A stretch of 57,181 nucleotides of DNA, counting the filler, from Sphacelaria rigidula (Eukaryota), in NCBI GenBank assembly GCA_964200075.2. It is 4 parts of 4 records of this genome, joined end to end, with 100 filler letters (N's around TTAATTAATTAA, not from the genome) between each part and the next. Parts side by side here need not be neighbours in the genome. Positions count along the whole stretch, not along the records: positions 28,644 to 42,864 come from CAXNAA020002374.1; 3 more parts are not named here. The stretch is one strand, 5' to 3'. The position numbers were made by a program, and so were the translations under genes. Positions within the stretch are counted from its first letter, which is position 1. Every line of letters starts with the position of its first letter. The notes beneath the pieces are model-generated. The model saw nothing but the letters and a program-made list of their open reading frames with translations. It made no database searches and had not been told where the DNA came from. Of this stretch, positions 14,223 to 50,300 are shown one piece after another.

Positions 14223-14322
14223 NNNNNNNNNNNNNNNNNNNNNNNNNNNNNNNNNNNNNNNNNNNNTTAATTAATTAANNNNNNNNNNNNNNNNNNNNNN
14301 NNNNNNNNNNNNNNNNNNNNNN
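14223..14322. other. Artificial contig linker (N44-TTAATTAATTAA-N44)
   Basis: Six-frame stop linker inside Ns. Confidence 0.97.
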
Positions 14323-28543: not shown

Positions 28544-28643
28544 NNNNNNNNNNNNNNNNNNNNNNNNNNNNNNNNNNNNNNNNNNNNTTAATTAATTAAN
28601 NNNNNNNNNNNNNNNNNNNNNNNNNNNNNNNNNNNNNNNNNNN
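28544..28643. other. Artificial contig linker
   Basis: N44-TTAATTAATTAA-N44. Confidence 0.97.
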
Positions 28644-28711
28644 ATCTGACTCGAAATTTGGAGCAACAAATGGCCCAAAATACCCCCCCCCCCCCTATCG
28701 TAGGATGACTC
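28644..28711 (-). mobile_element. TIR DNA transposon end (inverse of 14134-14222)
   Basis: CCCCCTATCGTAGGATGACTC terminus. Confidence 0.7.
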
Positions 28712-28719
28712 TAACCATT

Positions 28720-31700
28720 TCCACTTTTCATTCCTCGCGGGCTCTTGGTGTTGCTACGTCGGCGGTGGCGCCTCTCCGATAGACGGTTCTCAATGCGGCA
28801 GCCCCTCGTTTGTGGCGGAGACCCGATTGGAGTGTGTCTTTGTGTCGCCCCGCGTCCTCGAGCTCCTCTTACTTCTCATCGCCTCCAAAATTCCATTCGT
28901 GTGTGTTTTTCGCCGCAGTGATCCAATCGAGTGCGTCTTTCGCCTCCACTATGTAGACGAATCATTCCCATCGTTCCCTTTTGTGTGTAAGATACCCTCG
29001 CGAACATAGATTCTCCTGGAGGCGGTTTCTCCAGTGCTTGGAGCACCAGCCAGCTTTTGGAAGACGTGTCTCGTCCTCCTGGACAAGAACCTCTCGAACC
29101 ATAGTTGGCGCTTGCGGATGGTCGTGTTGATATGCTCGCAGTTGATCGTCTCCAGCACAGCTCTGTTGGAAAGAATTTCGTAACTAGTTCGCTCTCTCCT
29201 GGGGAATCCAACCACTCGCAGCAGAAGCTGATGGTGGGCAGTAGGCAAACTCGTGGAGCCCTCGGAACGCAGTGTCCATCTCGCACATCTGTACAGTACA
29301 GCTTCCACCTCCGCTTTAAGCAGCCAGGGTTTCAGAGGTAGCTGGGCGTCGAGCCGATCACAGAGTTGGAAGCTATACTTTCAGAAGCGTGCCCATGCAG
29401 TGGTGATGCGACAGTTGGTTTCGATGGAAATATCCGCAGCCGCGCTGATAACACCACCACGGTAGACACACGTGACCGTCTGCGTCTTTCGTTGGCGGGC
29501 CGCAGCAACTTGCTATACAGTCTCTGCGGAACTCGGTACTGACCACGGGCGCATAACCTCTGCATTGCTCTCCGGTACCGTTAATCCGAACTCCCGATCG
29601 GCCACTACTATCACTGTCATCATTCTAGCAAGCCCGTGTCTGTAGACCACGAGACTACGCGTGCGCCATACGCTTGGAACATTGCCCACAACGTGCTCCG
29701 TACCTTTTCCAGCGGTGTCTCTTCCAGTGGTTCACCATCGTCAACTTTTTGCGCAATCGTCTAGAAATACCAAACCTGAGACAATTGTCGAGTCTATCAC
29801 GAACCGCTGTACGATCACGTCGATCAAGGCTGCATCGAATGTGTTGAACAATACCCTGGAAGAAACGTATCCTGGCCTGAGTTTCCGGTAGACATGAAAC
29901 CACGCTGACATATCACCATCATCCAGCTGTACCTAAGCTCGTATGACACCGTGAGACATATGGATAACCTTTATTGTCCGCGGCGGGACAACGAACCGGG
30001 TAAGCACCTTCCACAGGAGCGTGCGGTCTACTGAGTCGAAGAGATTTTGCAGGACAATGAAACACATGTTTAGCGGGACATTGCTTGCCCGTCCCAACTC
30101 CTGTGGTCGGCGCACCATGAACTTCATGTGGGTGGTTGACTATTGACGCCGGAATCCACACTGTTCCGTCGGGAAAACCTCTCCCTCCTCGCAGCAGCTC
30201 CGGAGTCTGTCGGCTATGACTTTGGAGAGAACTTCGTCAGCATGTGCCACGAGGGAGACGCTCCTGTAGTTGCCACACTTGATTCAATCTTTGTTCTTGT
30301 GTGCCACTTCGATAGTGGCGTCGTACTACTCCTGCGACACCCACCAGGTGCCCAAATTGCAACGATGATGCTATGAGAGTGGCATACTACAGTATAGGAT
30401 CTCCGAAGGCTCCACGACCAACCCAAGCTTGAGGAAATCAGAAGGTATACCACGCGGGCGCGCCGTTTTCCCATGAGCCATACCTCTTCAGTTGGACTTG
30501 GCGGGTCTCCAAGTGACGACGCTGTCGATGGTTGCATAATGTTATCGATGACGGTTCGGCCCATGCCTACGGATGTAGCATTCAGCGGGGTGAAGAAGTA
30601 TCGTTCCTACCTCTCGCATATTGGACCTTTGTCTCGCGGTAGGTTGCCACCCTCGCCCTTGATACACTGCTCGCTCTCTACGTTTTGTCCGATCAGACTC
30701 CACCCTCCTTTCAGATGTCGGCACCATCTTCTCATGTACTGAATTCTAGTATGAACCGTCCGAAGCCCTTGCACACACATGCAGGGACTGTCCACCCCAG
30801 TGTGGAAAACGGTAACCTTTTCGACATTTCTGCACGCGATTCGCAAGGTGCGCCATGCGGGGTCATCTCTCGATCCCATTCGCAAAGTCAACCTCGCCCT
30901 GTCCCTCGTTCCCATGCCTTTTCGAACTCCGTTTGGAATGGAGCATCTTCGAGCCACGTCGGTATACGTGGCTTTCCGGTCTGACGGGGCACCACCTTCT
31001 CAGCGGAGCTCAGGAGTACATCGACGAGTTTCGCAACCGATGCACTGACTCTATCGCCAGTTCTGCTCTGCTTGAGCTCGCTGATGAGTTGGATGAGTTA
31101 CTCACGTCCATCGGTGTCAGATGTTATTGCCCGTCTGTCGATCGATTCGCACCCAGTGAGGTTCGTCATCGCCTGTTGAGTGCGATGCGACCAAGAAGCC
31201 GCACTGAGGCGCACAAGATGCTGTGATCAGAATCCGGGGCGCCGGGTGGTCGAAGGTGAACGGAGACATTGCGGGCGTGCCTAAGGCGATCTTGCCGTTC
31301 AAGGGTGTAGTCAATGCGTTTTTTGTCCGGGGAAACGGTTTGCAATGCCGATGAACGTCTGTGAAATACTTCTCGTGCCGGTGAAAAATAACCTGTTGAC
31401 CGGGGCAGGTCTGTTGCCATCCGCAATTTGTAGCAGAGAGGTGCCATTGTTGTCGTTCGCTCGAGAGTCCCGGCCGTACATCCCCACTACTTTACAGTCC
31501 TTCTCTCCTGCTCTTACCCCCGTCCTAGAGTTAGCGTCCATCAAAATAAAATCGGTTCCCAAACTTTGTGTCGAACTCGTTCTAGATCATGTCTCTCTCC
31601 TCTTGACTTCGACGTGTCGGTAGGGCCATAGGCCGACTACAAACCGGACGGCTCTCGATTCGCCTACAAGGTTGATCGTCATCGAGGTGAGGCGCTCGCA

Positions 31701-32400
31701 GGTGAGCGTAAGCCCTGAATCGATGTCGCCTCACAGACGATCGACTCCTTGACCGCCAACCCGACCCCATGCTATCTAGCCCTTCCCTTGCCACGCCAGC
31801 GAACCGCGCTCCGCCCGATTTCTTTTTCTCCTCCTACAATCCCAGAACGTCACAACCCACCATGTTACACGTTTGCGGAACCACTTCAGGGCGCCCAGCC
31901 CCGTTCTTGCCCGTGAGGGAGAGTCAAGGACGTTGCAGCTTGCCACTTTGAGCTTCCTCGTACATGACTTCGCTCTAGCCTCGTATAACTACACGCTCTA
32001 CTCTTTGTTGTGCCCTCATCTTCGGTTTGTTCCTCCTTCTAACCTCACGCGCGAAATTTCTGTTCCGGTTTTACCGTGTCACATCAATCATGGTACGCGC
32101 CTTGCGTTTTGGTCTCACGGAGATGGTGCAGCGGTCCTAGCCCGCGTTAATCGCTAGCTCCAGTCCGACGAATTTGGGAATCTTTGACAACAGATCCCAT
32201 CTCCATCGACGTGTTTTCCGTGACGGTTGCCTAACTTCGGGGTAAAACTCTGCAGCCGCGGGGTTGAGTTTGGGTTCCAGTATAGGGGAGAAGTGAGTAG
32301 CTGCAGGGTTGAGTCTGGAATTCAACACTGTTGGCATGGGTCACTGGCTAGCTTGTGTGTTGCATCACCACTGACACGATCACATTTTGTAGATCATGCT
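28720..32400 (-). mobile_element. Decayed non-LTR retrotransposon (LINE, RTE-like): APE endonuclease + reverse transcriptase
   Basis: EN motifs LKVASCNV, DVLGL*E, MDANSRTG, RIDYTL, SDHSIL; RT motif CFIVLQNLFDSVDRTLLWKVLTRFVVP; numerous frameshifts and stops. Confidence 0.88.
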
Positions 32401-32496
32401 GCCCTCTCCTACGCGTGGCTTTGTCGTTTGTTTGCTGGTTGGCGATTAGCTTTCCCCGACAAAACCATCGCCAGTCGGGCGACGGTCGGGTGGCAG

Positions 32497-32753
32497 GGTA
32501 TTCCTTGGCTCAGGCACAGGGTAATGGTTTCAAATCTTTTATTGAAGAGCACCCAAGTTCTACTATAACTTGGGAGAGTGCTGATGAGATGGTGGGTAGA
32601 TGAATGAGAATGATCAAGGGTGGCGGACTGCTCCGCTGCTCTCAGCCGTACTGTACCACAATTGCACACACTTGACTGTCGGTACTCGTACGTCACCCCG
32701 ACCCCCGGTTCTACCTAGATCCAGGATTACTGGGTATCTGAATCACTCGAACG
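32497..32753 (-). repeat. Copia 3' LTR
   Basis: Near-identical to 37826-38082. Confidence 0.9.
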
Positions 32754-35126
32754 CTCCCCCTGATCGGGTGCCTCAGCACTCAAAGCCCCCCCCCCCCCCA
32801 AAAAAAAGGGAGGAAATTCGGCCTCCCGAACAAAAAACCCTTATCACACAAACTCCACCGCTTGTGCTCAAAACAAACAGCCCTTTTTCGCGGACGCCCA
32901 GGCCAGGGCACCTGCACATAATAACGGGAAACGCCCTACAAACCAATGCCCCACAAAGTAGCGTGAGCAGCTTCACCCGATGTAAGCGCAGATGCATCAC
33001 GGAAGCCATTACCTGAAACATCTAGAACTGACAAATCGAAAGACACACACAAAACAAAAATATGTGTCTACTCGCTGTCCCCAGTTATCATCAAGGCGCG
33101 ACGGTGCCTGTTGAACAGCGTGTATGGGAGCGGCTTTGTAAAGATATCAGCGTGTTGCCATTCCGAATCCACATGTACAATCCTTACTGCTCCCGTCCTA
33201 ACCAAGTCCCTAATCAAATGCCACCTCACGTCGATATGCTTGCTACGACCTGAGCTGAGAGGGTTGTCGGCTAGAGCCTTAGCCCCCTCATTGTCCTCAT
33301 ATAGAACAATATCATACTCTACTTGTCGTCCCAACACAACCCTTGGTCATAGGACAGACAGTACCGACCTGACAAACATGCATTCCTTCGCCCCTTCAGC
33401 CACAGCTACGTACTCGGCTTCGGTAGTTGATAGGGTAACGCAGTGTTGCGTTCGACTAGTACTTGATACTGCTATCCCCCCGTACATGACCGCCACCCCG
33501 GAAACTGATCGCCGGTCTGTATCTTTCTTTGCGTAGTCAGCATCACAACAGACTGTGAGCCTACTTTCCCCTGAACTAAAAGTCAGACCATAATTTCTGG
33601 TCGTGTTGAGGTACGCCAAACCTTTCAACACTCCTCGGTAGTGTCTTTCACATGAGTCATGTGATTGTCGGGCCAGATCTCGGGTTGCATTTGCTATGAC
33701 AGGTCTGGTTACCATAGCCGACCACATCAACCCTCCCACGGCACTTCGGTATGGTCTATCTAAAACCTTGTCACCTTGCTTCACGGGTCCCAAGTCTGCA
33801 GATACTGATGCGGGAATATCAGAAAATCCCGTAACCTCGAAACAAACGCTTCAGCATGGTGTCGACAAAGGTCGTCTGATTCACGTACATGGTACCTCCT
33901 TTCCAATTCCTCTCTATGGCACCCCCCATATACCACTGAACTTCACCTAAGTTGTTCGTTGGGAATCTGTTATTCAGGATATTATATACTCTTTCCACTT
34001 TTTTCGTTTCTCCCCTTATTAGAATGTCGTCCACATGCACCACAATTATGGCACACACTTCTCCCCCTTCCTCGAGTTTGTATACACACGGGTCAGCCTT
34101 ACTTTGCGACATCCCTACATCCTCCATAGGTGTTTTGTTCAGGAGGAGGGACCATTATCTCCCTGCTTGTTTGACGCCAGATATAGATTTTTCTAGCCTA
34201 ACCGTGCTACCTGTCAATGGGTCACACCCTTCATGAACGCGTTCGTGTCCATTTTGGCTCGTACGAAAGCCTGGGTAACGTCGGAGTGATACAGTGGCCG
34301 TGCCCTCTGTACTGCCACGGCCATGACCAATTTTATTGATGTCATGGCCGGGGTGGCTGCAAACGTCTCAAAATAATCCACCGCGTATCTCTGCCCAAAC
34401 CCACGCGCCACTAAACTAGCCTTGGCTTTAATTATAGCACCATTAGCGTCGGTTTTCCAAGTGAACACCCATTTGGCTGTGATTATGTTTACTCCTTTTG
34501 AGAATGTACCTGCGGTTCATGTCCATTCAGTTCTGCACGCATGGCACTCGATCATATTTCCTTGTATTCCGACTTTTCTATGTCTTCTACTGTTACGCGG
34601 GGAGTTTCCACATCTCTCATGTGCAGACCGATGGGGGAACGCAAACCAAAACTGGGCTCCGCTTCTGTATCGTTTTCGGTCGAAAAAAATATATACTCCG
34701 CAAAAGTCTCCCCGATCAGCATGGTCGCGGTGCCTCCCACCTCTGGTCCGGCTGCTGCAGTGATCAGCTCCGTCACCCCGCACTTGTCCTCCGCTATTTC
34801 ATATAGTAAAGTTTCAGCGTGAGCCCTCGCCTGAGCCCTCGCCATCGCGCGGGAGAAAAAATCGTTTCTTTCCCACGCCAGAGTTTTCTCCAGTTCCTTT
34901 GCCGCCGATGCCAGCTCGTTCCGGTCGGCTGCCGCTCTCGTCGCACTGCGCGGGCGACCTGCCATTTGCGGAGGCAGCAACAATTCATCGTCGAGTGCAA
35001 GACGACGTAGCTCCGTCCTTGGGATTTCGGGAGCTCCACCGCCCCCCCCGTCGTTGCGCTCCGGGGTGTCTACGGTTGTCGGTGTTGTTGCTGTCAGCGT
35101 TGTCGGCGGCGTTGTTTCTGTCGGCG

Positions 35127-35325
35127 TTTGCGGCGGCGATGTTGCTGTCGGTGGCGATGTAGCTGTCGGCGGCGGTGTTGCTGTCGGCGGCGACGTGACT
35201 GTCGGCGGCGATGTGGCTGTCGGCGGCGACGTGACTGTTGGCGGCGACGTAGCTGTCGGCGGCGACGTGACTCTCGGCGGCGACGTAGCTGTCGGCGGCG
35301 ATGTGGCGGTCGGCGGCGATGTGGG
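35127..35325 (-). repeat. 18-bp coding minisatellite (PPTATS/PPTVTS)n inside Copia pol
   Basis: GGCGGCGATGTGGCTGTC-type tandem units. Confidence 0.85.
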
Positions 35326-37825
35326 GGGCGCTGATTCTCCGTCATCCATGAGATGTCGGACAGGGTTGCGTAAAATCCCGCGCCCCCCCACCGCTTCTGC
35401 AAGGAAGCGGCGAGGTCATCTCACCCCCCCCGTCAATAGCGGGGGTCTGTTGTGCCGCTTCTGCGTCCAGCTCTGGGTTGGGAAGCAAGAACGACACGTG
35501 CCGTGAACCGCGGGGTGAAGCATGCGCCACCGGAGTTTGCCGTTCCGCGGACTCGCTGCCGGTCGTCCCTCCCTCGGTCTTGTCATCCCTCGTTCCGTCG
35601 GGCGTCGGGATCGATTGTGTTCGTGTATGGGTCGATCTTGGGATGGGCTGCCGAAGTCCCTTTCCTTCCGAGCATCCTCGGCACGGTCTCAACTCGCCGC
35701 GCAGCTCCACTCCAAGCTGCTTTGCAGCCCGCCGGAGCAGGTTCTGAAGATGCGCGTGTTTGCAACGGAAATCATTCATGTCTTCAACTTGGGGGCTGGG
35801 AAGTTTCCCCGGGGCAATCACAGCGCATGCTGTCGCATTCTTGTCATGACCTTGTGGATAAATGCGTTGGGCGTACATTATCAACTGTCTGTGCTGACCG
35901 GGGATTTTCACGGTATTGCCTGACTTCAACTCGACCAGGAAGCCGTTACTAGACCCAATGTAGGTGTGACCCGCGTTGGATATCTTGGTCAGTGACAACA
36001 GATGGTGACGGACACAAGGTGTGTGGTCTACATTTCTCAAATGCAAGACTATATTGCGTCCATCAGATCGTAAAGATAGAGCCAAGTTTCCTCTTCCAAC
36101 GATCGGGTAGGTACCACCGCCCGCACACCGTAGTACCCTTCCACTGCATTTTCTATAATCCGTCATGATACTCGAATCAGGAGAAAAGTACGAAGTGGTT
36201 CCCGTGTCAAGTACCCACGGTTTGCCCCCATCTGACTGCTGTACATCCCCCTTCCCAGTTGCAAACGCATACTCGCCTGTGTTGACCTCATCTACCGTCA
36301 TGCGGAGGCTGGTGAAAGCTTCTGCATCAGCATCCGAACAGACGGAGTCGTCGTCCACCACGTGTTCCACCACGCCCATCATAACCGCCGCGTCCTCCAC
36401 AGTCACCGCGTCCTCCACAGTGCTCTGACAGTCAATCAAAGTATGTCCTCTCTTCCCGCACCTAACACAACACCTGTCTGGACAGTCTCTCGCCCGATGT
36501 GTGGTCATCTTCTGACGAACGTGGCACCTCCACGGCGTCGCAGCCCCCGACTGGCTCGTTGACGATGAAGCCGGTGACTGGTTGTTTTTGCCCTGCCCCG
36601 CATCACCTGCGCAGCCTGCGTTCTGGGTCTTTCCCGGTTTACCTTCCCGGTGTGAACCGTTAGGTTTGACGGGATGGCCCTTGACGGCAAGGGCCTGGTT
36701 GCCCGGGGAAGTCTTCTTCCCCTTGGCGAGTTCCTGCTTGAAAAAGTGCCGATTCGAAACGTTTTCGAACCGACGTCACTTCGACTTCCTTCGTGAGCGG
36801 ACCTTCGCGCTCCTCCAACTCCTGTTATTGGTAGTTATACTCGCAAGGAAGCGCACTGACAAATTTGAGGAGGGTTTGCGCCTCCGTCAGGATGATGTTG
36901 GTGCCGTGTGATTGTAACTCTCTCGCCACCTCTTCCACCTCGAATAGTTTTTGAACAGGATCATCGCGAACTCCAATCTTCACGAGATCATATTTTTCTA
37001 GAAGAGGAAATCTAGATCCGTTGGCCTTGGGGCCGTAGATATCATTTAACTCACGCCACATGGCTGCGGGAGACGGAATTCGGAACAAAACATCCCGGTC
37101 CCGCTTGTGTTCGAGACTCGCCACCAACATTTGCCTCGCTCTCACGTTTGCAGCTACAGTGCCCTTTCCGTGCCTTGCTTCAAGATAACTTAAGGATATC
37201 GCCTTGTTTCCCACCTCCACATCGTATGCCCTATCTTCTGACATAGTAAACACCCAATCAACTGCTTCGCTTCTGGCAAACATGATTAGTTCGTGACTGT
37301 AGTGGTTGAACTCTGAACTCTTCCCAGAGAACTTAGGTACAGTTGCCTTGAAAACCGGGACCCCGGAAATATTTTGGACACTTGGTCGATTGTGATCGAA
37401 CACTGCGGCGGACGCACTTGCGGGGTCTGCACCCTTTGCTCCGTCGCTTGCTGTCCTGTGGTCGCTCCCGCTTGGAGCTCCCCGCTCGCCCTCACGGTTG
37501 TGTCTTCGCCCGTGAGGTGTGCTGTGGCTGGCTGAGTTGTCAGCCTGGTGTTGTTGTGTTGCTTGATCTTCTTCCCTTTCGACGACGCCACTCCACGTCG
37601 CGCCTCCGGACTCACTATCTCCGATGCCATCTACTTTACCCTGTATTACAATTTGTGGCGATTCTACATCTCTAACCATATCTATCAATGTGCTAAACTG
37701 ACCACTGAACAGACTCATCATACTTTCATGCTGACTCGTGACTCGTGAGCCCGTCTAATCTTTCTTCTAAAGGCGGAGCGTTATCATCGTTCCTAGCCAT
37801 ACTTGCCCGATCGATTGACCACTAG

Positions 37826-38082
37826 TGTATTCCTTGGCTCAGGCACAGGGTAATGGTTTCAAATCTTTTATTGAAGAGCACCCAAGTTCTACTATAACTT
37901 GGGAGAGTGTTGATGAGATGGTGGGTAGATGAATGAGAATGATCAAGGGTGGCGGACTGCTCCGCTGCTCTCAGCCGCACTGTACCACATTTGCACGCAC
38001 TTGACTGTCGGTACTCGTACGCCACCCCGACCCCCGGTTCTACCTAGATCCAGGATTACTGGGTATCTGAATAACTCGAACA
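37826..38082 (-). repeat. Copia 5' LTR (TG...CA)
   Basis: 257 bp, TG..CA termini, adjacent PBS. Confidence 0.9.
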
Positions 38083-38459
38083 CAGGGGAGTTTATCACTA
38101 GACAACCCAGATCCATTACAGTATGTATGTTTCGTTTATGCTTGAAGATTCGTCTGTTTCTGCTCTCAGTAAAGGTACTGTAGAGAGCGAAGGATCGCGA
38201 TTTTGTCTCCATCAGTTGTATTTGGGGATACAGTGCTCGCTTGCAGCTTTGCAGAAAAAAACGCGCTCATGAAGCTTCGCTAATCGGCAAGAGTTGCGCC
38301 GCTTTCCATACATATCGTCCTCATCTGCAACTCACGTCCCGGGTCCCGAGTCTTATGCTTTCGCGATAACATCTGCTGCTGAAGTACGTCTGAGGCATAT
38401 ACTCTAACACGCTTGCATACCCTTATCGAGTATCGCATGGATCTTCCTGAACGTAGTAA

Positions 38460-39620
38460 GGGTGACGGCGGGGTATTTGCCAATGTTTTTTCAGTGTGCA
38501 GCCGTCGTCACTACGGTGTATGCACTTGTTATGCATGCCAACAGATCTCAGTATTTCATCATGCCTTTCCCGCAAGATGTGGCGCTCCCTGCTCACACAT
38601 GCAGCCTGGATTCGATGGCCAGGGCAATTCATGAATGGAGAGCAGTTTTGATTACCGTACTTCTCACTTCCGAAAATATCACTTTCTCGCATTCACTAGG
38701 TTCACGCTTTTGTAACATACAGTAGTGGTGTACCAGGTACTTCCTCTACTCGGTCACCAGAATCTCGCCGCGTGAAACCTCCAGCGGCGGGACATCCTGA
38801 CGCTTGTTCGCGTTTCCATGCTAGCATGCGAAATATCATTCATACAGATCAGCATCATCCGCGTACTCGAAACGGACGGAGTACTCGTACTTTCTATGTA
38901 TTTACAAAACTGTACTACTTGTAGGATAAAGTCGAAGAAGACATACAAAACCTATACACGACGACGTGATTTCTGCCCAAGCGATAAGGTGAGGATGGTA
39001 GTAACAAGGTGGTGCCATACGGTCACTGGAGATAAGTTCTGCACTCTCCATGGTCAGGAGGGGGTAGCCACAGTGCTACCAGATGACCAGATGGTATAGG
39101 TAGGGGGTAAGCCAGTGGACCTGGTCATGGGCCCAACCAGCGTGGGTAAGAGAGGCACTCCTGGTCAGCCCATGGAAGCCTGGGCGTTGCTGAGAGTGAT
39201 GGAGGAGAGTATGGATAGGCCAGTCGTGGACACTAGCTACGACGTAGCCACCTTGCCTAGGGGGCCAGTTAGTGCATTGATTCCCCGTGGTAGCAGCAGG
39301 TGGAACGGTGACGCCATGATCCAGTGCGACTACGGTGTTGTAACACTGATGTAATCGTGCCACAACATGTAGCTGAGACTGCGAGCACACTGTACCGACA
39401 TCATGGGTCATGCATACTCTGATCCACTAGACCGCCGCCTCGAGGCCTCTTTCGCACAGTACTGAACATTAAAGCACGCTGCGACAAAGAAGGGGCACAG
39501 ATCTTGCTTACTCTTCAGCCTCTGTTTCGCACGTGTGGTTTCGTGGTCGCCAGTGTTTTGAGCATGCAGTCCACTACCACGACGTTTAGAGTAAATGTGT
39601 ACACATTTCAGAGTGAGTGA
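38460..39620 (+). pseudogene. Pseudogenised divergent DNA-dependent RNA polymerase beta/RPB2-like subunit (no intron across the conserved segment)
   Basis: One frame over 39001-39465 reads TGDKFCTLHGQEGVATVLPDDQMV*VGGKPVDLVMGPTSVGKRGTPGQPMEA...CDYGVVTLM*SCHNM*, matching the RPB2 pattern GDKxxxRHGQKG..EDMP..PDIIxNP...RMTxGQLxE..GxxYxQRLxHM; outer boundaries uncertain. Confidence 0.75.
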
Positions 39621-40748
39621 GCTATTTGATGCCTGGGATGCTGGCGCGGGTCGGTGGGAAAGCCGGCGAGTTCGAAGGGTTCACGCGCACGTGGCGCGAC
39701 GTGAGCGCCCTGGACATGGAAGATGAGCTGAAGCAGGTGCGTTTTTACTGCACGATAGCACCCACGTACGCACCCTGGCGGGTGCTAATCACCTCACCGT
39801 CTAGTATAGCATTATACATCATGTACAATACCACCCCCGGTGACTTTTTCTTTCGAGACCAGCTCAATATACGTGTGTCGCCCAGTGAGCATGTTCAGCT
39901 GTTGCTTTAGACTGGAGAAATAGAATAGATCAGCAGACTGTGTTGCTTCTGGTAGCACTATTATTTATATGTACAGTTGATACCGGTTCATTTCGTTTAC
40001 GTAGGAATTGAACAGACGTGTTGGCGAACAACGCACCACCCCTGGCGGTACTGTCAATCGCAGGACGTCTCCGATCCGAGCTTCGTCCTGAGAAACTTGG
40101 ATCTGGCCAGCTCGTGCTGCGGCAGTCAATCGTCAAAAGTGGTACAAGGGTACCTGAAACGCAAACAAGCTCAGGTGAAATATCTTCGAAGGACTCTTTC
40201 AGCTCAGTACGATGCACCGTCGCGTTTGTCGCGCACGTCATCCTGCCTCATCGGCTTCGCGAATTCAAGATCGTTGACCTGAAAGTGGTTCCACGAAAAT
40301 GGTTTTTCAGCAGTTCCGTTCGCTTTTTACTCATTGGCTAGCTTTCATGCGATGAAACCGGAGTATGCGGAGATCGCACAGCTTCCCATTTTCGAACGCC
40401 TCATGACTGGGACCAGGATCATCATTTAGTGCGGGGGCATGAACTATCCGAGAATCGGACAACGTCTTGCCAGGTGTAAAAATATCGCAAGCTAGTCTCT
40501 ACTCAATGTCAGGGTTCTCCGCAAACACGGCCCGACCAGTTTGATCCTAGCCCGCGTGGTCCTAGCGGATGCGAAGGAGCAAAATGAAACTGCACTCGCA
40601 ATGCAATATGTCCTAAATAATTGGTCAGGGAAGTTTCTGCTGTGTCGGGTGACGATGATATTACTGGACTAAAGCCACCAGCTCGCACACCTCCGAGGCC
40701 CTAGAGGCAGGCATGCGTGGCCTGAGGTGTTCACCATGTCTAACGTGG

Positions 40749-41260
40749 TAAGGGTAGGGTACGTGCCCTAGGGTATCCTAGATTTTCAGGGTACTCGTAG
40801 TAACGAACACCTCAGGGTATGCACGGATATCGGCTATTGATAGACGCAATATTCCAGGATACCCAGGGTGAGATTCATCGAAAATACTCAGAATTCCAGG
40901 GTACCCAACATAGCGGCTACTAGCTGTCACCGATACTGAGTACCACAACAGTACCACGGGTATTCACCTGCAGATATTCCCGGTACCCGGAGTAGTGAGT
41001 AAAAGTAATGTGTACCTCAGGCACCTAGAGTACCGATTATCGAAAATAATGAGTATTCGATGGTACCTCGGGTACCCACCCCTCAAGATACCCAGTGTTG
41101 TATTGCTTAATATACTCCTTATTTCAGGGTGCATCGGGTGCCAATTGTCGTATGTAAGCAGTATTCCAGGGTACCCAATGTGTAGAGTACCGAATGTACT
41201 CAGAATTCCAGGGTACATACCCAGTACTGGGCATTTATCGTTACTGGAGAGCTAGGTAAC
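40749..41260. repeat. Degenerate ATTCCAGGGTACCC subrepeat array (MITE-like)
   Basis: Repeated GGGTACCC/ATTCCAGGG units; starts AGGGTAGGGTAC. Confidence 0.6.
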
Positions 41261-41627
41261 AATCCGGTATTGTGAACCTTCTTGGCTGCACAATAGCGAG
41301 TTACCCGGTTGTATGCTGAACTTGGCATTGTTGCCTGCATAACGTTCCAAGACGTATTTTAATCTATGCGGAGGACGAATGAATGTTTTTGGAAGTCACC
41401 ATTGCGCCGGGTGTATACCAATGCGCTGAATGCACGGTGTGTAAACGTATCAGTTCGTTGAACTTGGCTAAAGCGACGCTGCTATGTGTGAACTCAACGT
41501 ATGCGGGAAAAGCCGTACCGCGAATCACAATCAAGCATGCAAGCAGGGATCCGCATACCCCCCCCCCCCCTCCCCACCGCCCTCGCCCCTATCCACATTC
41601 ATGAACCTGTTTCGTACAGTACAGTGC

Positions 41628-41950
41628 TCCAGGGTACCTAGGATAGAGAACCCCGGAAATACCGAGTACGTAACGCCCCCCGACAATACCGAATACTGTA
41701 GGGTATATGGGGTATTGACTGCCAATATTACTGAATATCTCGAGATACCCCGGGTAACCGCCCGCCGAAATACCCGGTATATTACCCGAAATATTCCATC
41801 CACACACTGGATATTGGGGTACCCAGGGTAACGACGGCCGCAATAATGAGAATTTCCAGAGCATGCAGGGTGTTGACCGCTCGAAATACTCAGTATTCCG
41901 GAATAACCGGGGTATCGCCGCAAAAATTTGTACTCCATATTCCAAGGTAC
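41628..41950. repeat. Second degenerate GGGTACCC/AATACC subrepeat array
   Basis: Same motif family as 40749-41260. Confidence 0.55.
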
Positions 41951-42864
41951 GGTTGGTTATGAAAGCTAAAAACACCCAGCATCCTGGGGCATTCAGGGTA
42001 CGCATTGCTGCATGTCCGATACTCACATCGTCTCGTCCGCTGTCGCTGAGTAAAGCGGCCGAATGAAGACCTCTTTCTTTTGCTTGCCACTGTTGCTGTA
42101 GCACGGAGAGAATGTTCTCTACCTCGCAGTCGCTGCTATGTGCATCATGCTCACACTCGTTCTCTGCTGCAGTGCGTTGCTGGTGAGGCAGTCTAAAAAC
42201 ATTGCCGGGATGCTTTCGGAAACGACTATAGTGCGCAGTTTTTGTGGGCTCCCTGTCAAACATCAGAGGTGCTCGGTGTGCACTATTCAGATAATTGAAT
42301 CTTGCAAAAAGTTAAATTTCGCTAGCCCTTTTTCGTTCATCATAAGAGTAAGTCTAGTATACTTGCCCATCGGACAGTTTCGTGTGATACGATCGCGGGG
42401 TGGTATGTGCGGACCGGACAATTTAAGGGACAACCGCCCATGTGTCGTCGAATGAATGTTTTCATGTTCCGCCGTAGCTACTACTGAGTTAAGCTACGCC
42501 ATATCGTCCTTTTGACACCCAAACTGATGAATATATGATCTGGATCCTGCGTGATACGTCAAGTGTGGGCGTGTGTTGTATTCTGATGTATGGATCTTGA
42601 ATGATGGACGCATTTGTACATAGATTACTCCACCACTGTAAAAACTGGGCTTCGAACTTGTGAAGGGAGTTGTTGGTCATACCGGGGTACTTTTGGGACG
42701 TGATTATCCACGAGGCATAATCTGACGGACCGGGTGTGTTGGAAAATAGTTTATGTTGTCTCTTCCTCCCCCCCTCCCCCCCTACTCTATCGTTTATCTA
42801 TGATCAGTCTCGAAAGGGATGCGTGGTCGATGGTCAAACGGCTAAGGCAAGTAACAAATGAGTA

Positions 42865-42964
42865 NNNNNNNNNNNNNNNNNNNNNNNNNNNNNNNNNNNN
42901 NNNNNNNNTTAATTAATTAANNNNNNNNNNNNNNNNNNNNNNNNNNNNNNNNNNNNNNNNNNNN
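42865..42964. other. Artificial contig linker
   Basis: N44-TTAATTAATTAA-N44. Confidence 0.97.
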
Positions 42965-43034: not shown

Positions 43035-46000
43035 GCCAAAACGACGAGAAAGTCACAATTGAACACCAAACTCACTCGTAATGCGAGCAGCGACGGCACG
43101 AGTCATGCGCAATGTACGCAACCCCTTCGTGAGAAATTCCGGAGCGGCCCCAAAAATATCCTTGAAAGGCTCCCACGTACGCTCCTCAACTTCGAAACCA
43201 GCCCAGTCGACCAACACGATCAACGAACGATCATCAGCTCCTGCCACTCGGATACTACCAGCAATCTGAAATTGCCCCTGATTGAAAGCGTGCAGGGACA
43301 CGTCCTTAACGTCAGCCGTAAGATTAAGCTGCGAGCATAAGCACAAAAACGAGCTACATGGGCGGTCTGAACACGACCCCAAACAATGTTCTGGATCTCA
43401 AACACGTGCGGATGGTTAGCACCAACCACTCTCCACGGACCAGTCCACGTCACCATCAACTTGAGCGTAACGCCCGGACGACGCACGTGTGCATACAAGA
43501 CATAGTCGCCTACCTCAAAACTTGGCAGTTCCAGCCCCGACGAGGACCCCTCACGTCTACGGTCACGTTCAGCGGCAACACGTTCCTGCACTTGAACGTC
43601 GAAACGTTCTTGCAAGTCCAAAACTCCTTGCAATGCACGCTTAATTTGACCATCATCCAGAACATCACAATTCCACTTCCCCGCCGATGAGGACGCCAAC
43701 ACCGAGAAAGACGTCCGAGGTGCACGACCAAACATCACGTGATACGGTGTACTATCGTACCGACGACGATACGCTGTATTAAGCACCTGTTGTTGCACCG
43801 CAGGCAACACGTCCACCCACTCGGAAACCGCTCTAGGCTGCTCGAGAAGAATAGAGCGAGGAGCACGAACTACTTCCTTGACCATGCGTCGCACGTGCCG
43901 TGAGACCACGGATAATAGGCCACCGCAAACTGGTGATCAACGTACGAAGCCTCTCGCAATCGGTCCAAGATCGCATTCTTGAAATGCGTGGCCGTATCAC
44001 TCACCCACACACGCGACACCCCCAAAGTTTTACACTAATTTAGCAAAGATGCAGCAGCCGATTCAGCAGTACACACTGCTACTGGTTCCAGAGACACGAG
44101 GTTGCTCAAATCATCCATGATTACCGAAATGTATCGAAACTCAGCATTCTCCGACAAACCTTGGGAAGCTAGCGGGCCAATCTCGCCCACGTACAAGAAG
44201 TCAAAATGAACGACTTCATTTGGCAGGGTCCCATGGACCGTTTCACCGAGCGGGCGGGGAACAACATCGCCCGCCCTCGAGTCAGCACAGTGAAGACACT
44301 GGCGGACAAATTCGCGCACATGAGTTTCTATCCCCTACCAGACACAAACCTTTTGTAAGAGTACGAGCGTCGCAGCCACACCACGATACCTGGCGTCGCG
44401 CATGTGCGCGTATATCATCAAACGTACCTGCAACTGCTTGTCAGAACTCGGAATCCACAACACGTTTCGGCCACGCACATGCACACGAAACAGATCTTCA
44501 TTGTCCAAGATAGCGGTACCAACGTCCAAATCGAAAGATTGCACATCCGCATCTTCGGCCCCAACGTCTTTTCGTTGCGCTCGGCGGACAACATTTGGAC
44601 GGCATGGAGTCATCAGGTTCACACGGACCATACACAGCCACAGCGCGCACGGACATAGCCGGAATATTAATCTAACGCGAAAGCAAGTCATCTCACGCGT
44701 TGCGGTCACCCGACATATGGAAAATCTAGTAAGGATATTGGCCAAAAACAGCTTTCCAACCCTCCAAACGTTGTGCCAACGCCTTCGACACAGACGTAAA
44801 TCACGCTTCCGGGTTGATATTATACACGAGATTCCGGTGACCCGTGAAAATGTGTACGCCATCCCACAAAATATGCTCCAAACGACAAAAAATGCTCACA
44901 ATAGTAAAACCTTCCTTATCAATTGTGGCCCCAACGCAACTGCGAACCCTTGAAACTACCACGTAGGAAAGCCAGCGGTTCATGCATCATCTTCTCGGCC
45001 GGTAAGCGTCGTTGCATCTCAACTTCAGGCACCTGCGTGACAAAACTACCCCAATGGCACTCAGATGCATCCGGAAACATCAGCACCTGACAATCAGGAC
45101 GAGGATGGAACAGCGTCACGGCATGAACCGCCAGATCCTTGGCTGCCGTGCACGGCGGCAACCTGCGCACCGTCCACGATGCAGGCGGAAGAGCTCGGTT
45201 TTCTGCCGCACGCCTCGTCCGCGTCGCAGCATCCACCATGCGTTTTTCGAGGAAACAATGCAAGGGAGCTACGATTTCTGCCCTACGCGGCAACGAGGTA
45301 CGCAGCCAACTCACGGCCTGAAGGAATTGCATGAGTTCTGCGGCCGTCTCCGGGTGTCGCATGTCAGACAAGCCTTGCAATCTGACAGGGTCATGAGATA
45401 CGCGTCCGTCTGAGTACACCTCCCTATACCACACGAGTTCACTAGCGAAAAAGGTACACTTGTGCGCAGCCGCAAACAAACCAACACTCTCTAAACGAGC
45501 CAAGATAGCATCAAGTGCATCTAAAAGTTCGTCTTCCGTGTCCGCGAAAAAAAAACAACCACCCATATCTTGCATTTTATGCCGGCGAGAAGTTATGTCA
45601 TGATGCCTTGGAAATTTGCCGTGGTTTTCAGCACTCCTTGCGGCACTCGCTTTGGGGTATACAAGCCAAACGGTCTCGTGATTGTGAAAACTTCCTACGC
45701 CTCCTCCGCCAACGGCATCTGCCAATAACCTTGGAGAAGGTCCAACTTGCCAAAAACGAGCACTCAACAGATCACGCATGTCCGACTCTTGGCTGAGCAT
45801 CACACTCGGCGACTTCTCAACCTGCTCATTCACGGCCTTGTAATCGATTACCAGGTAAAACGAGCCCTACTTCGGGACCGCCATAGCCGGACTGGGCCAC
45901 CCCGCCTGCAAGTTCCGGAACACCAAGCCGAGCGTCATAAGAGCCGCCATGCACGACGCCAACCAACTCGAACTCACTGGATCGTACCGCCGCGGCTTCG

Positions 46001-47355
46001 TCTCCACCGTGGACACCCCAGGTTTTAGCTGAACACGCATGGGCTTCACGGGCGCAGGGGGATCACCCCGCAGCGCACGACGAAACGCGTTGACGCGACG
46101 ATGCAAGATGCCGCGCAGGCGCTCCGCTTTTGAGACGCTGAGGCCTTTCGCCACGGCGTCCGTCACGCTCTCCTCCAGCGCGACCTTCCGAGCGGACTCC
46201 TCTTCCGTCGGGTCCATGAACATCTCCGGGCCGCGCTCCACCAAGCGTTCCACCGCCTCATCCAGCTCTTCGGTCACCTGCCCCCCAGCCTCCTGAAAAG
46301 CACCCACCGATGAACTCACGCGACGACTGCTCAGAAGGGCGGGCGTCTCCACGCGTGGACCAGGCGGAGACATCCGCGTCGTCTCGGAGTCCCACAATCG
46401 CGCATACGAGTCGACTCCAAAATCCGGAAGTGGCAACCCCAGAAGAATAACGCCATCCGACCCCACGATCGCAAACGAGATCGGAGACAACGGCACCGGT
46501 CCCCAGGAAGTCGTGAAAGCCAGTTGAAGCGGATCAGTACGCTGTGCGACGAAAGCATGCTGACCCGACGCGGTGACAGCCTGTTGCGCCCCGAGCGAAA
46601 ACGGGATGCGCAGCGACAAACCCGGGAGAAGACGCTCCAACATCTCTACAATCTGCACCGACAGAGTCACATGACTCGTGAATTGGACACCAGAATCTAA
46701 CACAGCCCGAACCGCAATGACTCCACGCTCCCATTGATTTGGAAGACACAACTCCGCAGGAACGTAGTTGTCCGCAGACTCCACTGGCACTTCATCCGCC
46801 GACCGATGCGCCGCTGGTCCACTTGACGCCACGACTGCGCAAGCTGTGCAAGCTGCGCAAGCTGTGCAAGCTGCGCAAGCTGCGCAAGCTGCGCAAACTG
46901 CGCAGGCGAAGACGCCCCGGCCAGCAGACCAAGAATTTGGCGAACCTCCGACCAGCGCGTCAGCAGGCGTCGCGGCTGGCGCTGCTGCCGGCGTCGCCAC
47001 CGGCGTCGCCACCGGGGCCGGTACACTGTTCGACACTGTAGAAGTCGGTCTCGCCTGGACCGCCCGTTGCGGAGCAGCAGCACTTACGGCGGCGCGGGAC
47101 CCAGAACTAGACCCATGCTGACGCCACTGCCCCGGCTGCTGCTGCTGCTGCTGAGAACTCGCCTGTGACCCTCCACCGCCGGAGGACCCGCCGCCACCAC
47201 CACGATTACCTCGTCCTTTGCCCTTGTGCTGATGATGCTGATGGCGCGCGGCATGAGACTACCCAGACTCTCCACCGGAAGACGTTGGGCACTCGCGCGC
47301 GTAATAGCCGACCTGACCAAAGCGGTGAAAGGTGATGGTCGCGGCGCGACCGGCC

Positions 47356-50300
47356 TGTGAAGCTGCCTGCAATCAGGACAAGGTTACAGTGCTGCTCCAG
47401 AGGCTTCCTCCCAGTCACGGGCTCCAGAGACTTCAAGACTTCAAGCAGTTATACAAACGGCAGTCTTCGTTAATCAGAAGTAAGCTTCACGGGCTTTCCT
47501 CACGAACACGATATGTTACGCATCCAATAGTCATCTTCCAAACAAGCAATCCAGGATCCGCTGTACATGTTGCATGGATACTGTAGGTGGACTACTCTAC
47601 AGCACCCTCCAAATCTTCGCACTACTCGAAGCAGAAAGCGAATTTGACAAAACAGTAGACGCCGGCAGTACCCTACGATGTCAACAAGAGACAAGCATTA
47701 TCAGACCGCATCAGATCAAATCACGATGCCTCCCCCAGTATAATCCTAACAAACCAGCACGAACTACTCCAACATTTTAGGCAAACAATAATCAAGCGGT
47801 ATACTCAACGTACACCAAATTGCATAGTAGAATCCATAAACTACGCCCACAACCAATCATAGCTTGAAACCCAACCAATCAGAGCTTGAGCCCATACTTA
47901 GCCAGCAAACGCGCCCGTACCTGCTTTGTTAGCCGCAATTTACGCAATTCCGAACGTACAAACCGCGGGGCTCTTTCCAAAATGGTTTCCAGAGGCTCCC
48001 ACGAGCTCTCGTCCTTGCCGAAACCTACCCATTCCACGTGTATAACGAACCCATCACCGTCTTGAGCCTCGGACAAGTCAACGATCGTCTCCATCTCGAA
48101 TTCTCCTTGCGCAAACGCATACTGGAACACTTCCTTCAGATTCGCAGTGACCGCCAGCTCCTTGTTCGCGTAGTACCGTAGTAGCTCTCTCTTCGGGCGA
48201 AAAACAACGGAGAAGGACCCGAAAGACAGTTCCCAACAGAATTTTTGAAAGGTTCCCAATAGATGCGGTCTTGAGGCGTATCTTCTTGCACATTCTTTTT
48301 CTATCGAAAAAAGTGCGGTGGATTTGATTCGACCGAATTCGCTCGTTTCCCGCCAGTTGGGTCGGAGCGAATTCGCGAGATTTCGATCTGAAAAAGACAA
48401 GGATTCGTGGAGTGGTACTTGTTGTGCATTTGTAATGCTGATGCTCCGCTGCCACGATCATCCACGGTCCTGTCCACGTACGTACGAGTTTTGGCGTTGT
48501 ACCTGAGCGCCTAACCCTCGCAGCCAACACATAGTCACCCACCATGAAATTTGGCAACTGTCCCTTACTAGCTACACGTCGTTACAGTTCACGAGTCTCC
48601 TCAACACGCTGCGCCACCTCCTTGTGCAATGCTTGCTGCGCCTCCACGACTGATGCCACATTCTCCCGCAGCATGTCCTCATTCAGCACATCAAGTCACC
48701 ACTTGCCGCAAGTCGACGATGCCAGGGTTGGAATACTTGTGCGCGGCGCCCGTCCAAACATCACATGGGATGGCGTACTGGCGTAGCGCTCGCGGAATGC
48801 CGTATTCAATGCCCACTGTACGGCAGGCACCAATCTCACCCAGTCACGAATGTCGCGCCTCTCTTCTTACAGCATGGCCTTCAAAGTACGGACAACCTCT
48901 CGCATCATCCTTTCACACGTACCATTTGACCACGGCGAGTTTGGAACCGCGAACCTCCTGTCCAGCTTCAGCGCCTTCTCCAATGCTCGCATCATATGGT
49001 TCTTGAAATGCGATGCGGTGTCACTAACCCAGACGTCCGGCGGGCCCAACGTTGCACCACGCCAGCAGATGCTGCACAGTTGCTGCAGCTGTACAAGACT
49101 CGGTGGGCTCCAACCACGCGAAATTGCACAGATCATCCATCATGAAAAGTATGTACTTGTACCCGTCGCCTTCATCCAGGCCGCTCTCGCCTGGCGGGTC
49201 ACTTTCACCAACGTACAGATAATCAAAATATATCACCTCACCGGGCCGTGTGCCATGCATTGTCTCCCCTAGTGGCCGCGGGACCATCTCACCCGCTTTC
49301 GAGTCCACACAATGCAAGCATTTTCTCACAAAATCCGTCACATGAGATTCCATCTAAAACCATCAGCAATATTCTTGCAGCCGCTGCAGTGTCGCCGCAA
49401 CACCCTGATGACCCGCCTCCTTCATGTGAGCAAACACCGTCAAGCGTGTTTGCAGCCCTTTTGCTTACGGCGGGATCCACAACACATTCGGCCCTGCTAC
49501 ATGCACGCGAAATAAACCCTCACCGTCTTTTGAAACTCGCCCAACAGCTGCTGCAAAAGTAGGGGCTCCAGCATCCATCATTCCGAACCCGGCTTGAGCC
49601 TGCTCTTGGGACTCACGAATTGCGTTATTTGACGGCAGCGTTTCATCAGGCTGACCGCTCGCAAACACGGCCGCAGCACGCACAAACACCGCCGGAACGT
49701 TTATCCACCTTGACAATAAATCTCCCCAGCAGTTCCGCTCACCAGCAATGTGCCTAATGGAGTAATCGTACTGCCCGAGCACAGCCTTTCATTGCTCGAG
49801 CCTCTGCGCAGCAGACTTAGACACGAATGCAACGCACGCCTCGGGGTTGAAAATGTATGCTAGGTTACGATGATCGGTGAAGATATGTACCCCACCCCAT
49901 AGAAGATATTCCAACCTACGGAAAGTACATACGATTGCATAGCCTTCCTTGTCCACCGTAGCTTACCGAACCTGCGCTCCACGAAACGTTCCGCTGAGAA
50001 ACCCCATCGGCTCATGGCTCATATCTTCCACCGCCAATGTACCACCCAGCTCATCCTCCGGCACCTCCGTAAGAAAACTTCCCCAGTGGAGATCCGATGC
50101 GTCAGGAAAACCTCATACCCCTGCTTGGGATATGATAAAGCGACTGCATGCGGTACCAAATCTTGCGCCTCGTGCCACGCCTGAGCACGCCTGGACGTCC
50201 ATGCCGACTCCTCGATTGTCCGGTTTGACGCCACTCGCTTGGTACGACGCACGTTCCCCTGCATGTGTTCCTTCAGGAATAACCACAGCGGCTCCACCAC

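Follow-up and report, generated by a model that had tools for sequence, protein, structure and literature searches.

Introduction

The RNA polymerase found in cytoplasmic virus-like elements (VLEs) of yeasts, represented by the pGKL2 products K2ORF6p and K2ORF7p, is a compact enzyme of the multisubunit type in which the conserved regions of the β subunit are kept with shortened spacing. K2ORF6p, whose residues 1–693 are the β homologue, is described as a β-β′ fusion belonging to the polymerase of a small self-transcribing DNA element (PMC6211774). Here we describe a stretch of 57,181 nucleotides, filler included (hereafter the window), from the genome assembly of the alga Sphacelaria rigidula (GCA_964200075.2), one contig of which carries a decayed fragment of a compact RPB2-like RNA polymerase subunit (about 146 codons, 38971–39408, plus strand). 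In our reading, to which we give a probability of roughly 0.7, the fragment is the dead remnant, about one fifth in extent, of a gene from an unnamed family of compact RPB2-like proteins that is probably carried on small self-transcribing elements. The likeness of this family to the VLE polymerase is one of description, and the hosts differ, being yeasts for the VLEs and ochrophyte algae for the family.

The second-largest subunits of Nucleocytoviricota (RPB2, and Rpo132 in poxviruses) share the fold of the family across nearly the whole protein, and a profile of the family scores vaccinia Rpo132 at 84 bits. They differ from it in sequence (12–15% identity), in length (the family is 250–400 residues shorter), in the Rpb2_1–5 and rpo132 signatures that the family lacks, and in their placement in a separate clade. 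LEF-8 of baculoviruses and nudiviruses, at about 850–1050 aa, resembles the family in size and in its very divergent N-terminal part, and the two share a GxKx4HxxGxxG motif. In contrast, LEF-8 belongs to viruses of arthropods, its fold matches to the family are weaker than those of giant-virus or cellular RPB2, and the Pfam LEF-8 family (PF04941) was found in none of 21 near-full-length members even at E≤10, nor was rpo132 found in any of them. Phaeovirus insertions of the EsV-1 type are like the fragment in being foreign DNA that is integrated and decaying in a nuclear genome of the brown-alga type. The available excerpts of two reports on giant-virus insertions in brown algae (PMC11890097; bioRxiv 10.1101/2025.02.06.636530) report no RNA polymerase gene in these insertions; in one of the two, RNApolA and RNApolB are given as absent from its insertion, and the excerpts of the other never mention RNA polymerase. 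On the strength of that reported absence, the fragment would need a donor other than the phaeoviruses.

Results

An RPB2-Type Fragment That Has Lost Both Ends

We searched all six frames of positions 37000–42864 with a hidden Markov model (HMM) of 21 family members. A single positive-scoring match was obtained, at 38971–39408 (97.6 bits, E = 1.7e-31), corresponding to profile positions 519–686 of 783 (21%), the catalytic double-psi β-barrel region. The Pfam family RNA_pol_Rpb2_6, whose cut-off is 23.4 bits, also scored the fragment at 29.3 bits (E = 6.4e-7) over its positions 209–278 of 373, and in a six-frame scan of 37000–41501 it was found again at 25.9 bits as the sole family at E≤10. When 12 family proteins were compared with the window by tblastn, each had its sole significant match at 38977–39363 (E = 7e-53 to 3e-12). 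Weak tblastn matches lay elsewhere: residues 76–140 of the family protein P0015 on 18828–19037 (E = 0.004), on another, unlinked contig, and a poly-Cys stretch of P0002 on simple repeats (E = 0.007–0.02). Neither the N-terminal 520 profile positions nor the C-terminal part with GGxxLGEME and a Cys-rich ribbon left any trace in the HMM search of 37000–42864 or in tblastn across the whole window. Both ends of the gene are absent, and about one fifth of it is left. An earlier interpretation made from the DNA alone (the sequence-only reading) had recognized the catalytic region of RNA polymerase β/RPB2 here, which the Rpb2_6 score bears out, but it had drawn the segment at 38460–40740, about five times too wide.

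The plus-strand frame of 38971–39408 reads FCPSDKVRMVVTRWCHTVTGDKFCTLHGQEGVATVLPDDQMV, a stop, VGGKPVDLVMGPTSVGKRGTPGQPMEAW...DYGVVTLM, a stop, SCHNM and a further stop. All motifs quoted in the sequence-only reading were recovered in this one frame: GDKFCTLHGQEGV (39028–39066), which is the GDKxxxxHGQKG motif with a Lys-to-Glu change; DQM (39085–39093); PVDLVMGP (39112–39135); KRGTPGQPMEA (39148–39180); YGVVTLM (39331–39351); and SCHNM (39355–39369). The codon of the second catalytic Lys of HGQK is indeed GAG (39058–39060). This Lys is invariant in all 21 near-full-length members of the family and is retained in P0002, a second genomic copy described below. The frame is broken at TAG (39097–39099), where P0002 has Gln and the aligned relatives mostly have Gln; at TAA (39352–39354), where relatives mostly have the Gln of an IRLMQ motif; and at TAG (39370–39372), where they mostly have the Phe or Tyr of a CHMT(F/Y) motif. 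Because relatives carry these residues, and P0002 has Gln at the first site, the three stops are point changes, as the sequence-only reading had held. With three in-frame stops, a lost motif Lys, neither end of the gene and 21% of the profile, the fragment is a dead fossil. Thus, 38971–39408 is homologous to RNA polymerase β/RPB2 but is non-functional.

A Family of Compact RPB2-Like Proteins

An exhaustive HMMER search with the read-through fragment against 1.84 billion representative proteins returned 87 matches at E≤1e-3, of which 18 passed E≤1e-10 and 2 passed E≤1e-30, with the best family members reaching E = 1e-47. Two near-copies head the list (P0003, 99% identity; P0002, 81%), and the next group, P0004–P0009, is 43–63% identical over 67–130 residues; the fragment is 43–82% identical to family members. 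We set aside 13 of the 87 matches as compositional, since each consisted of 3–7 stretches, all within query residues 2–65, a TYKTYT-rich part upstream of the homology; the three that were inspected (P0010, P0028, and P0052) are TYTYTYA/KTVTLTG repeat proteins. Most of the remaining matches carry the signature (V/T/N)GDKF(T/C)T.HGQKGV.T...D..MP ... (I/V)(I/M)GS(S/T)...KR.T.SQ..EA.

Full-length members are 790–920 aa long (P0015, P0023, P0035, P0036, P0051, P0098–P0102, and P0220), with P0221 at 781 aa, and family members are predicted as single uninterrupted open reading frames (ORFs). In the 21 aligned near-full-length members, Pfam Rpb2_6 was detected in every protein and Rpb2_7 in 16, in the last third, while Rpb2_1–5 went undetected save for Rpb2_3 in a single protein (E = 0.012). 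A C-terminus rich in Cys is common to the aligned members, which are 21–47% identical to P0015. Many relatives are short, with damaged motifs. The names attached to 30 clusters are unspecific, being of the kind “hypothetical protein” or, for P0042, “unnamed protein product, partial [Laminaria digitata]” (CAN0048122.1), and full-text literature searches, whose scope did not extend to supplementary gene lists, found no publication on the family. Judged by sequence comparison, these proteins constitute an unnamed, monophyletic family of compact RPB2-like subunits.

The Fold of Intact Members and Their Distance from Known Polymerases

We modeled P0015 with AlphaFold2 using the 21-sequence alignment (mean predicted local distance difference test score of 78.6, predicted template modeling score of 0.73). 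In Foldseek, 700–770 of its 813 residues were aligned to second-largest subunits (E = 1e-26 to 3e-28, 13–17% identity), with targets from archaeal polymerase, Pol I, II, III, and IV/V, and poxvirus polymerase scoring about equally. Matches to giant-virus RPB2 had E-values from about 1e-26 to 2e-27 over 716–763 aligned columns at 12–15% identity, and those to LEF-8-type proteins (from LbFV, hytrosavirus, and NPV) were far weaker (E = 5e-13 to 3e-9). The near-full-length alignment of folds indicates that the whole protein is a shortened RPB2. According to the model, intact members are predicted to retain the RPB2 fold in full, at reduced spacing, including the GDKF..HGQKG barrel, GGxxLGEME, and the Cys-rich ribbon. 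Since the catalytic barrel, GGxxLGEME, and ribbon are conserved, the parent gene of the fragment would have encoded a working second subunit.

A 12-member profile was about equally distant from every type of solved subunit, scoring only 48–90 bits on every cellular or poxviral second subunit. The scores were 89.8 bits for archaeal Rpo2, 85.8 for RPC2, 84.2 for vaccinia Rpo132, 74 for RPB2, and 58 for RPA2, with bacterial β at no more than 63 and bacterial and plastid β together at 49–63, so the family is not closer to the bacterial type of β, as an organellar or bacterial rpoB would be. The ESM Atlas offered no lead specific to the family, its matches all being generic clusters (RPB2, giant-virus, and LEF-8).

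Phylogenetic Placement

A maximum-likelihood tree (LG+G4, quick search) was computed from 97 rows and 231 columns. A score filter had flagged 86 rows as family, from which we dropped P0068 and P0077, which have bacterial-type motifs, and nine duplicates or near-duplicates. The rows kept had at least 110 residues in the region, and P0002, P0008, P0009, and the Laminaria piece were then added by hand. The reference rows were hand-picked, comprising 18 of 80 loci from IMG/VR, 9 of 24 from prokaryotes, and 13 other proteins, and eukaryotic Pol II and Pol III are not represented among them. The 57 family rows lie on one side of a branch with a stem of 0.70 and a support of 97 in the Shimodaira–Hasegawa-like approximate likelihood-ratio test (SH-aLRT), and a second clade, with a support of 100, unites the archaeal rows with those of IMG/VR giant viruses and a single RPA2-like row. 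The fragment and P0002 are sisters (SH-aLRT 90), nested in a clade of 16 rows (97) to which CAN0048122.1 of Laminaria digitata and uninterrupted ORFs of 781–793 aa from other assemblies also belong. The fragment thus belongs to the compact family by profile match and by placement, although the N- and C-terminal parts of the family protein are missing from it.

The sequence-only reading had taken the segment for a very divergent, intron-free RPB2-type fossil derived from neither nuclear nor organellar polymerase genes of the host. The scores of 48–90 bits and the separate clade (in a tree without Pol II or Pol III rows) agree with it. On the same similarity and tree results, we rejected a processed pseudogene of the host RPB2 and an origin from the plastid or mitochondrion.

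The Locus and a Second Copy in the Algal Genome

The stretch is present in five public sequencing runs of two studies, four of which we compared over 37000–41500. Depth across 38208–40623 is that of single-copy DNA (69.3 in run X1, 25.2 in X3, and 13.5–16.8 in X4). The fragment begins about 900 nt past the long terminal repeat (LTR) of a Copia-type retrotransposon, a part that is very high-copy in the runs (its summed depth reaches about 242,000, compared with 69 in the flanks), and independently assembled contigs cross this LTR into the fragment (X1 record 7, 37896–41500; X3 record 15, 37994–41500). The single-copy flanks, and the independent contigs that run into it from the abundant Copia LTR, place the fragment in nuclear DNA. 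The runs also contain a strain-level variant that shows 18 differences across 3.5 kb. No RNA run is listed among those that contain the stretch, which says nothing on expression.

A second contig of similar depth (1322–1337 nt) matches only 38997–39301, with 27 differences in 305 nt (91% identity), and the two copies have unrelated flanks. Its size fits that of the source of P0002, which it may be. Besides keeping the motif Lys and the Gln noted above, P0002 begins its homology to the family almost where the window copy does in the gene. The two copies probably stem from one truncated insertion, duplicated afterwards at another site. The window copy and P0002 differ at 18 of 102 residues. By a rough reckoning, 27 nucleotide changes against 18 amino acid changes in 102 residues is about what unconstrained change would give, suggesting that both copies drifted without constraint.

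Occurrence of the Family and Possible Origins of the Fragment

The family is associated with ochrophyte algae. P0051 is a complete ORF on a transcript of a marine protist transcriptome project, from a cultured protist; P0104 is on an Attheya sp. scaffold from a diatom data set; and further members are the Laminaria digitata protein and the sequences of the source alga. For six full-length members (P0051, P0098, P0101, P0100, P0102, and P0036) the contigs measure 15207, 15286, 15311, 15332, 15533, and 16036 nt, respectively, compared with about 13.5 kb for pGKL2. Members on these 15–16 kb contigs are only 33–47% identical to P0015, and near-uniform contig sizes of 15.2–16.0 kb despite such divergence suggest that the contigs are complete small replicons, virus-like or linear-plasmid-like. 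Contigs of other members measure 17698 nt (P0093), 11005 nt (P0221), 9502 nt (P0091), and 9261 nt (P0220). Among the matches listed from JGI metagenomes are at least two short family loci, both damaged: one (2325 nt) lacks about 145 middle codons and changes frame there, and the other (1920 nt) is truncated, its ORF stopping early. tblastn with P0091 found only a Mollyvirus RPB2 (24.7% identity) in phage records and no match in a plasmid collection.

A different origin would be cellular: the family could be a fast-evolving, lineage-specific ochrophyte paralogue of RPB2, for instance in an extra nuclear polymerase, and the fragment a duplicated pseudogene piece of it. A complete ORF in a cultured-protist transcriptome, another member in a diatom data set, and a member annotated as a Laminaria digitata protein are all in keeping with this, and plants offer a precedent for extra polymerases, the second subunit of Pol IV/V being among the Protein Data Bank matches. 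We nevertheless regard a paralogue as unlikely, for the members are uninterrupted ORFs on short contigs, and six full-length ones on contigs of 15.2–16.0 kb are not expected of random nuclear fragments. Moreover, such low identity to P0015 (21–47%) and many decayed copies are unlike a conserved core enzyme, and Rpb2_1–5 domains are undetectable (one Rpb2_3 apart).

Less probable still is an ordinary large-virus RPB2 left by an endogenous giant virus (of Nucleocytoviricota other than Phaeovirus) or by a mirusvirus. Many giant-virus insertions are described for brown algae in the excerpts available (PMC11890097; bioRxiv 10.1101/2025.02.06.636530), and giant-virus RPB2s are the best viral matches in Foldseek, with the E-value of 2e-27 given above. 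However, a scan of IMG/VR, which gave 118 relatives in 156 matched stretches, contained no family member among the 80 that were kept; their best segments are 23–42% identical, and all are ordinary giant-virus RPB2s of 1100–1700 aa. In the tree, the 18 rows from giant viruses cluster with those of archaea and apart from the family, whose members are 790–920 aa long, lack the full Rpb2_1–7 set of the giant-virus proteins, and in six full-length cases sit on contigs of about 15–16 kb rather than hundreds of kilobases. The sequence-only reading had proposed a self-transcribing element, whether related to giant viruses, mirusviruses, or cytoplasmic linear plasmids; of these, a small element is indirectly favored by the six full-length members on 15.2–16.0 kb contigs, and an ordinary giant-virus origin finds no support.

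A nuclear piece of plastid rpoB, or bacterial contamination, can practically be dismissed: the best solved-structure matches of the fragment itself are bacterial-type β (e.g., 8x6f_C, E = 2.9e-4), but these are weak (24 bits) against family members down to E = 1e-47, the family profile prefers archaeal and eukaryotic subunits (74–90 bits) to bacterial and plastid ones (49–63), Rpb2_7 is present in 16 of 21 members together with the shared Cys-rich C-terminus, a collection in which 185,579 prokaryote species are represented by one genome each contained no family member (24 relatives, best segments 21–43% identical), and independent assemblies show the fragment attached to a high-copy Copia LTR.

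The Downstream Region and the β′ Subunit

The sequence-only reading had also seen weaker resemblances to β′/RPB1 at about 40195–40660 and, in these, hints of a compact β-β′ arrangement like that of pGKL2 ORF6. Neither idea held up. No Rpb1 family was found in the six frames of 37000–41501 at E≤10; four β-β′ fusion proteins compared with the window matched with their β part only, at 38968–39249; and the family profile gave no downstream signal. The GDDD at about 40647–40660 is an isolated tetrapeptide in a frame otherwise without similarity. There is no β′ gene beside the fragment.

Intact family proteins end after Rpb2_7 and the RPB2 C-terminal ribbon, and in this they differ from K2ORF6p, the β-β′ fusion (PMC6211774). 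Neither the fragment nor the intact members show β′ directly after β, as in the pGKL2 type. A search of proteins of 1608–4590 aa among 2726 candidates found no longer, fused form of the family, which is weak evidence, and returned only four distant β-β′ fusions (24–33% identity).

Among the distant matches of the searches are unnamed β-β′ fusion polymerases of 1275–1782 aa (P0065, P0078, P0079, P0080, and P0237–P0239), in which Rpb2_6 is followed by Rpb1_2 in one chain; P0080 carries an intein in addition, and two of these fusions are the poorly supported nearest neighbors of the family in the tree.

Genomic Setting of the Fragment

The window consists of four separate contigs of about 14.2 kb each (14222, 14221, 14221, and 14217 nt), joined at three points by linkers of the form N44-TTAATTAATTAA-N44 (14223–14322, 28544–28643, and 42865–42964). 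Adjacency across the linkers is artificial, and only 28644–42864 (CAXNAA020002374.1) is physically linked to the polymerase fragment. Since the contigs are unlinked, a host gene elsewhere in the window is uninformative about the fragment's locus, and the sequence-only reading could not safely argue from the introns of such a gene.

The Copia-type LTR retrotransposon occupies 32495–38081 on the minus strand, with gag, Pol_BBD, and RVT_2, and its LTRs (32495–32752 and 37824–38081) are 97% identical to each other. To its left on the same contig, at about 29750–30290 (minus strand), is a reverse transcriptase of a second type (Pfam RVT_1, E = 2.7e-11). Within the Copia element, an array of 18-nt direct repeats at 35077–35364 (12 overlapping 90-nt copies with 18-nt spacing) lies inside a minus-strand ORF (34552–35415) and encodes peptide repeats of the PTATSPPTVTSP type.

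On the other side of the fragment, a short open frame at 39617–39740 (plus strand), ending in MLARVGGKAGEFEGFTRTWRDVSALDMEDELKQ just 5′ of GTGCGT, resembles an exon with a splice donor. It has no Pfam match, and may be part of a host gene or due to chance. Further along, 40780–42000 holds degenerate short repeats of CCAGGGTAC/GGTACCC words, with a 59-nt family at 40846, 41116, and 41158. Run depth there rises to twice that of the flank and several contigs skip parts of it, indicating a dispersed or variable repeat. No inverted repeats of at least 40 nt were found in the fragment's contig, and a search of phage DNA with 38700–39700 gave no match. On a different contig, long minus-strand ORFs at 43220–53046 resemble, judged by eye from the ORF list, proteins of Gypsy-type retrotransposons: gag with a zinc knuckle, reverse transcriptase, integrase, and chromodomain-like tails.

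Discussion

The history that we favor for the fragment, as a dead remnant of a compact RPB2-like gene probably borne by small self-transcribing elements, can be outlined as follows. An element, rather than a host gene, is suggested by the six contigs of 15.2–16.0 kb, the uninterrupted ORFs, the many short relatives with damaged motifs, and the two genomic copies in unrelated flanks. In a living element, the intact protein, to go by its fold, would join a β′-type partner, itself encoded elsewhere on the element, to transcribe the genes that the element carries. One piece of this kind of element would have entered the nuclear DNA of the alga, truncated at both ends, and the truncated piece would then have been copied once to a second locus, where the copy is now 91% identical over 305 nt. 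Both copies probably drifted neutrally thereafter, with the one in the window gaining three stops and losing the motif Lys. The fragment itself is without function now.

Several observations weigh against this reading. What points to small replicons is the size of the contigs, and not their gene content, their ends, or their nature as DNA or RNA; other full-length members lie on contigs of 4.3–17.7 kb, which are uninformative in this respect. A β′-type partner, a DNA polymerase, a capsid gene, or a terminal repeat was found for no member, the 15–16 kb contigs being unread. The complete ORF in the transcriptome of a cultured protist would also be expected of a host gene. In the tree, the nearest neighbors of the family are two β-β′ fusions and three partial bacterial rows, with supports of only 84–89 on open forks, a placement that we do not trust as evidence on the deeper origin of the family. 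Lastly, the statement that the family is not nested within host clades draws on profile scores with solved structures and on one RPA2-like row.

More tentatively, and at somewhat less than even odds, the fragment could be the footprint of undescribed self-transcribing DNA elements of about 15–16 kb, virus-like or linear-plasmid-like, that live in ochrophytes including diatoms and brown algae, carry their own compact polymerase of the multisubunit type, and occasionally integrate into host nuclei. Small replicons that bear such a polymerase would thereby be found for the first time outside the fungal cytoplasmic plasmids.

Inert as it is, the fragment has its value as a pointer to a monophyletic family of shortened RPB2-type subunits comprising at least 57 distinct sequences. 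It also means that genomes of the brown-alga type hold foreign DNA from donors besides the phaeoviruses, which are not known to carry such a polymerase. If the 15–16 kb contigs are complete genomes, ochrophyte algae would be hosts to tiny replicons that bring their own polymerase. Such a finding would bear on the minimum size of a self-transcribing eukaryotic element, and on how transcription genes came to be shared among yeast killer plasmids, polinton-like elements, and giant viruses.

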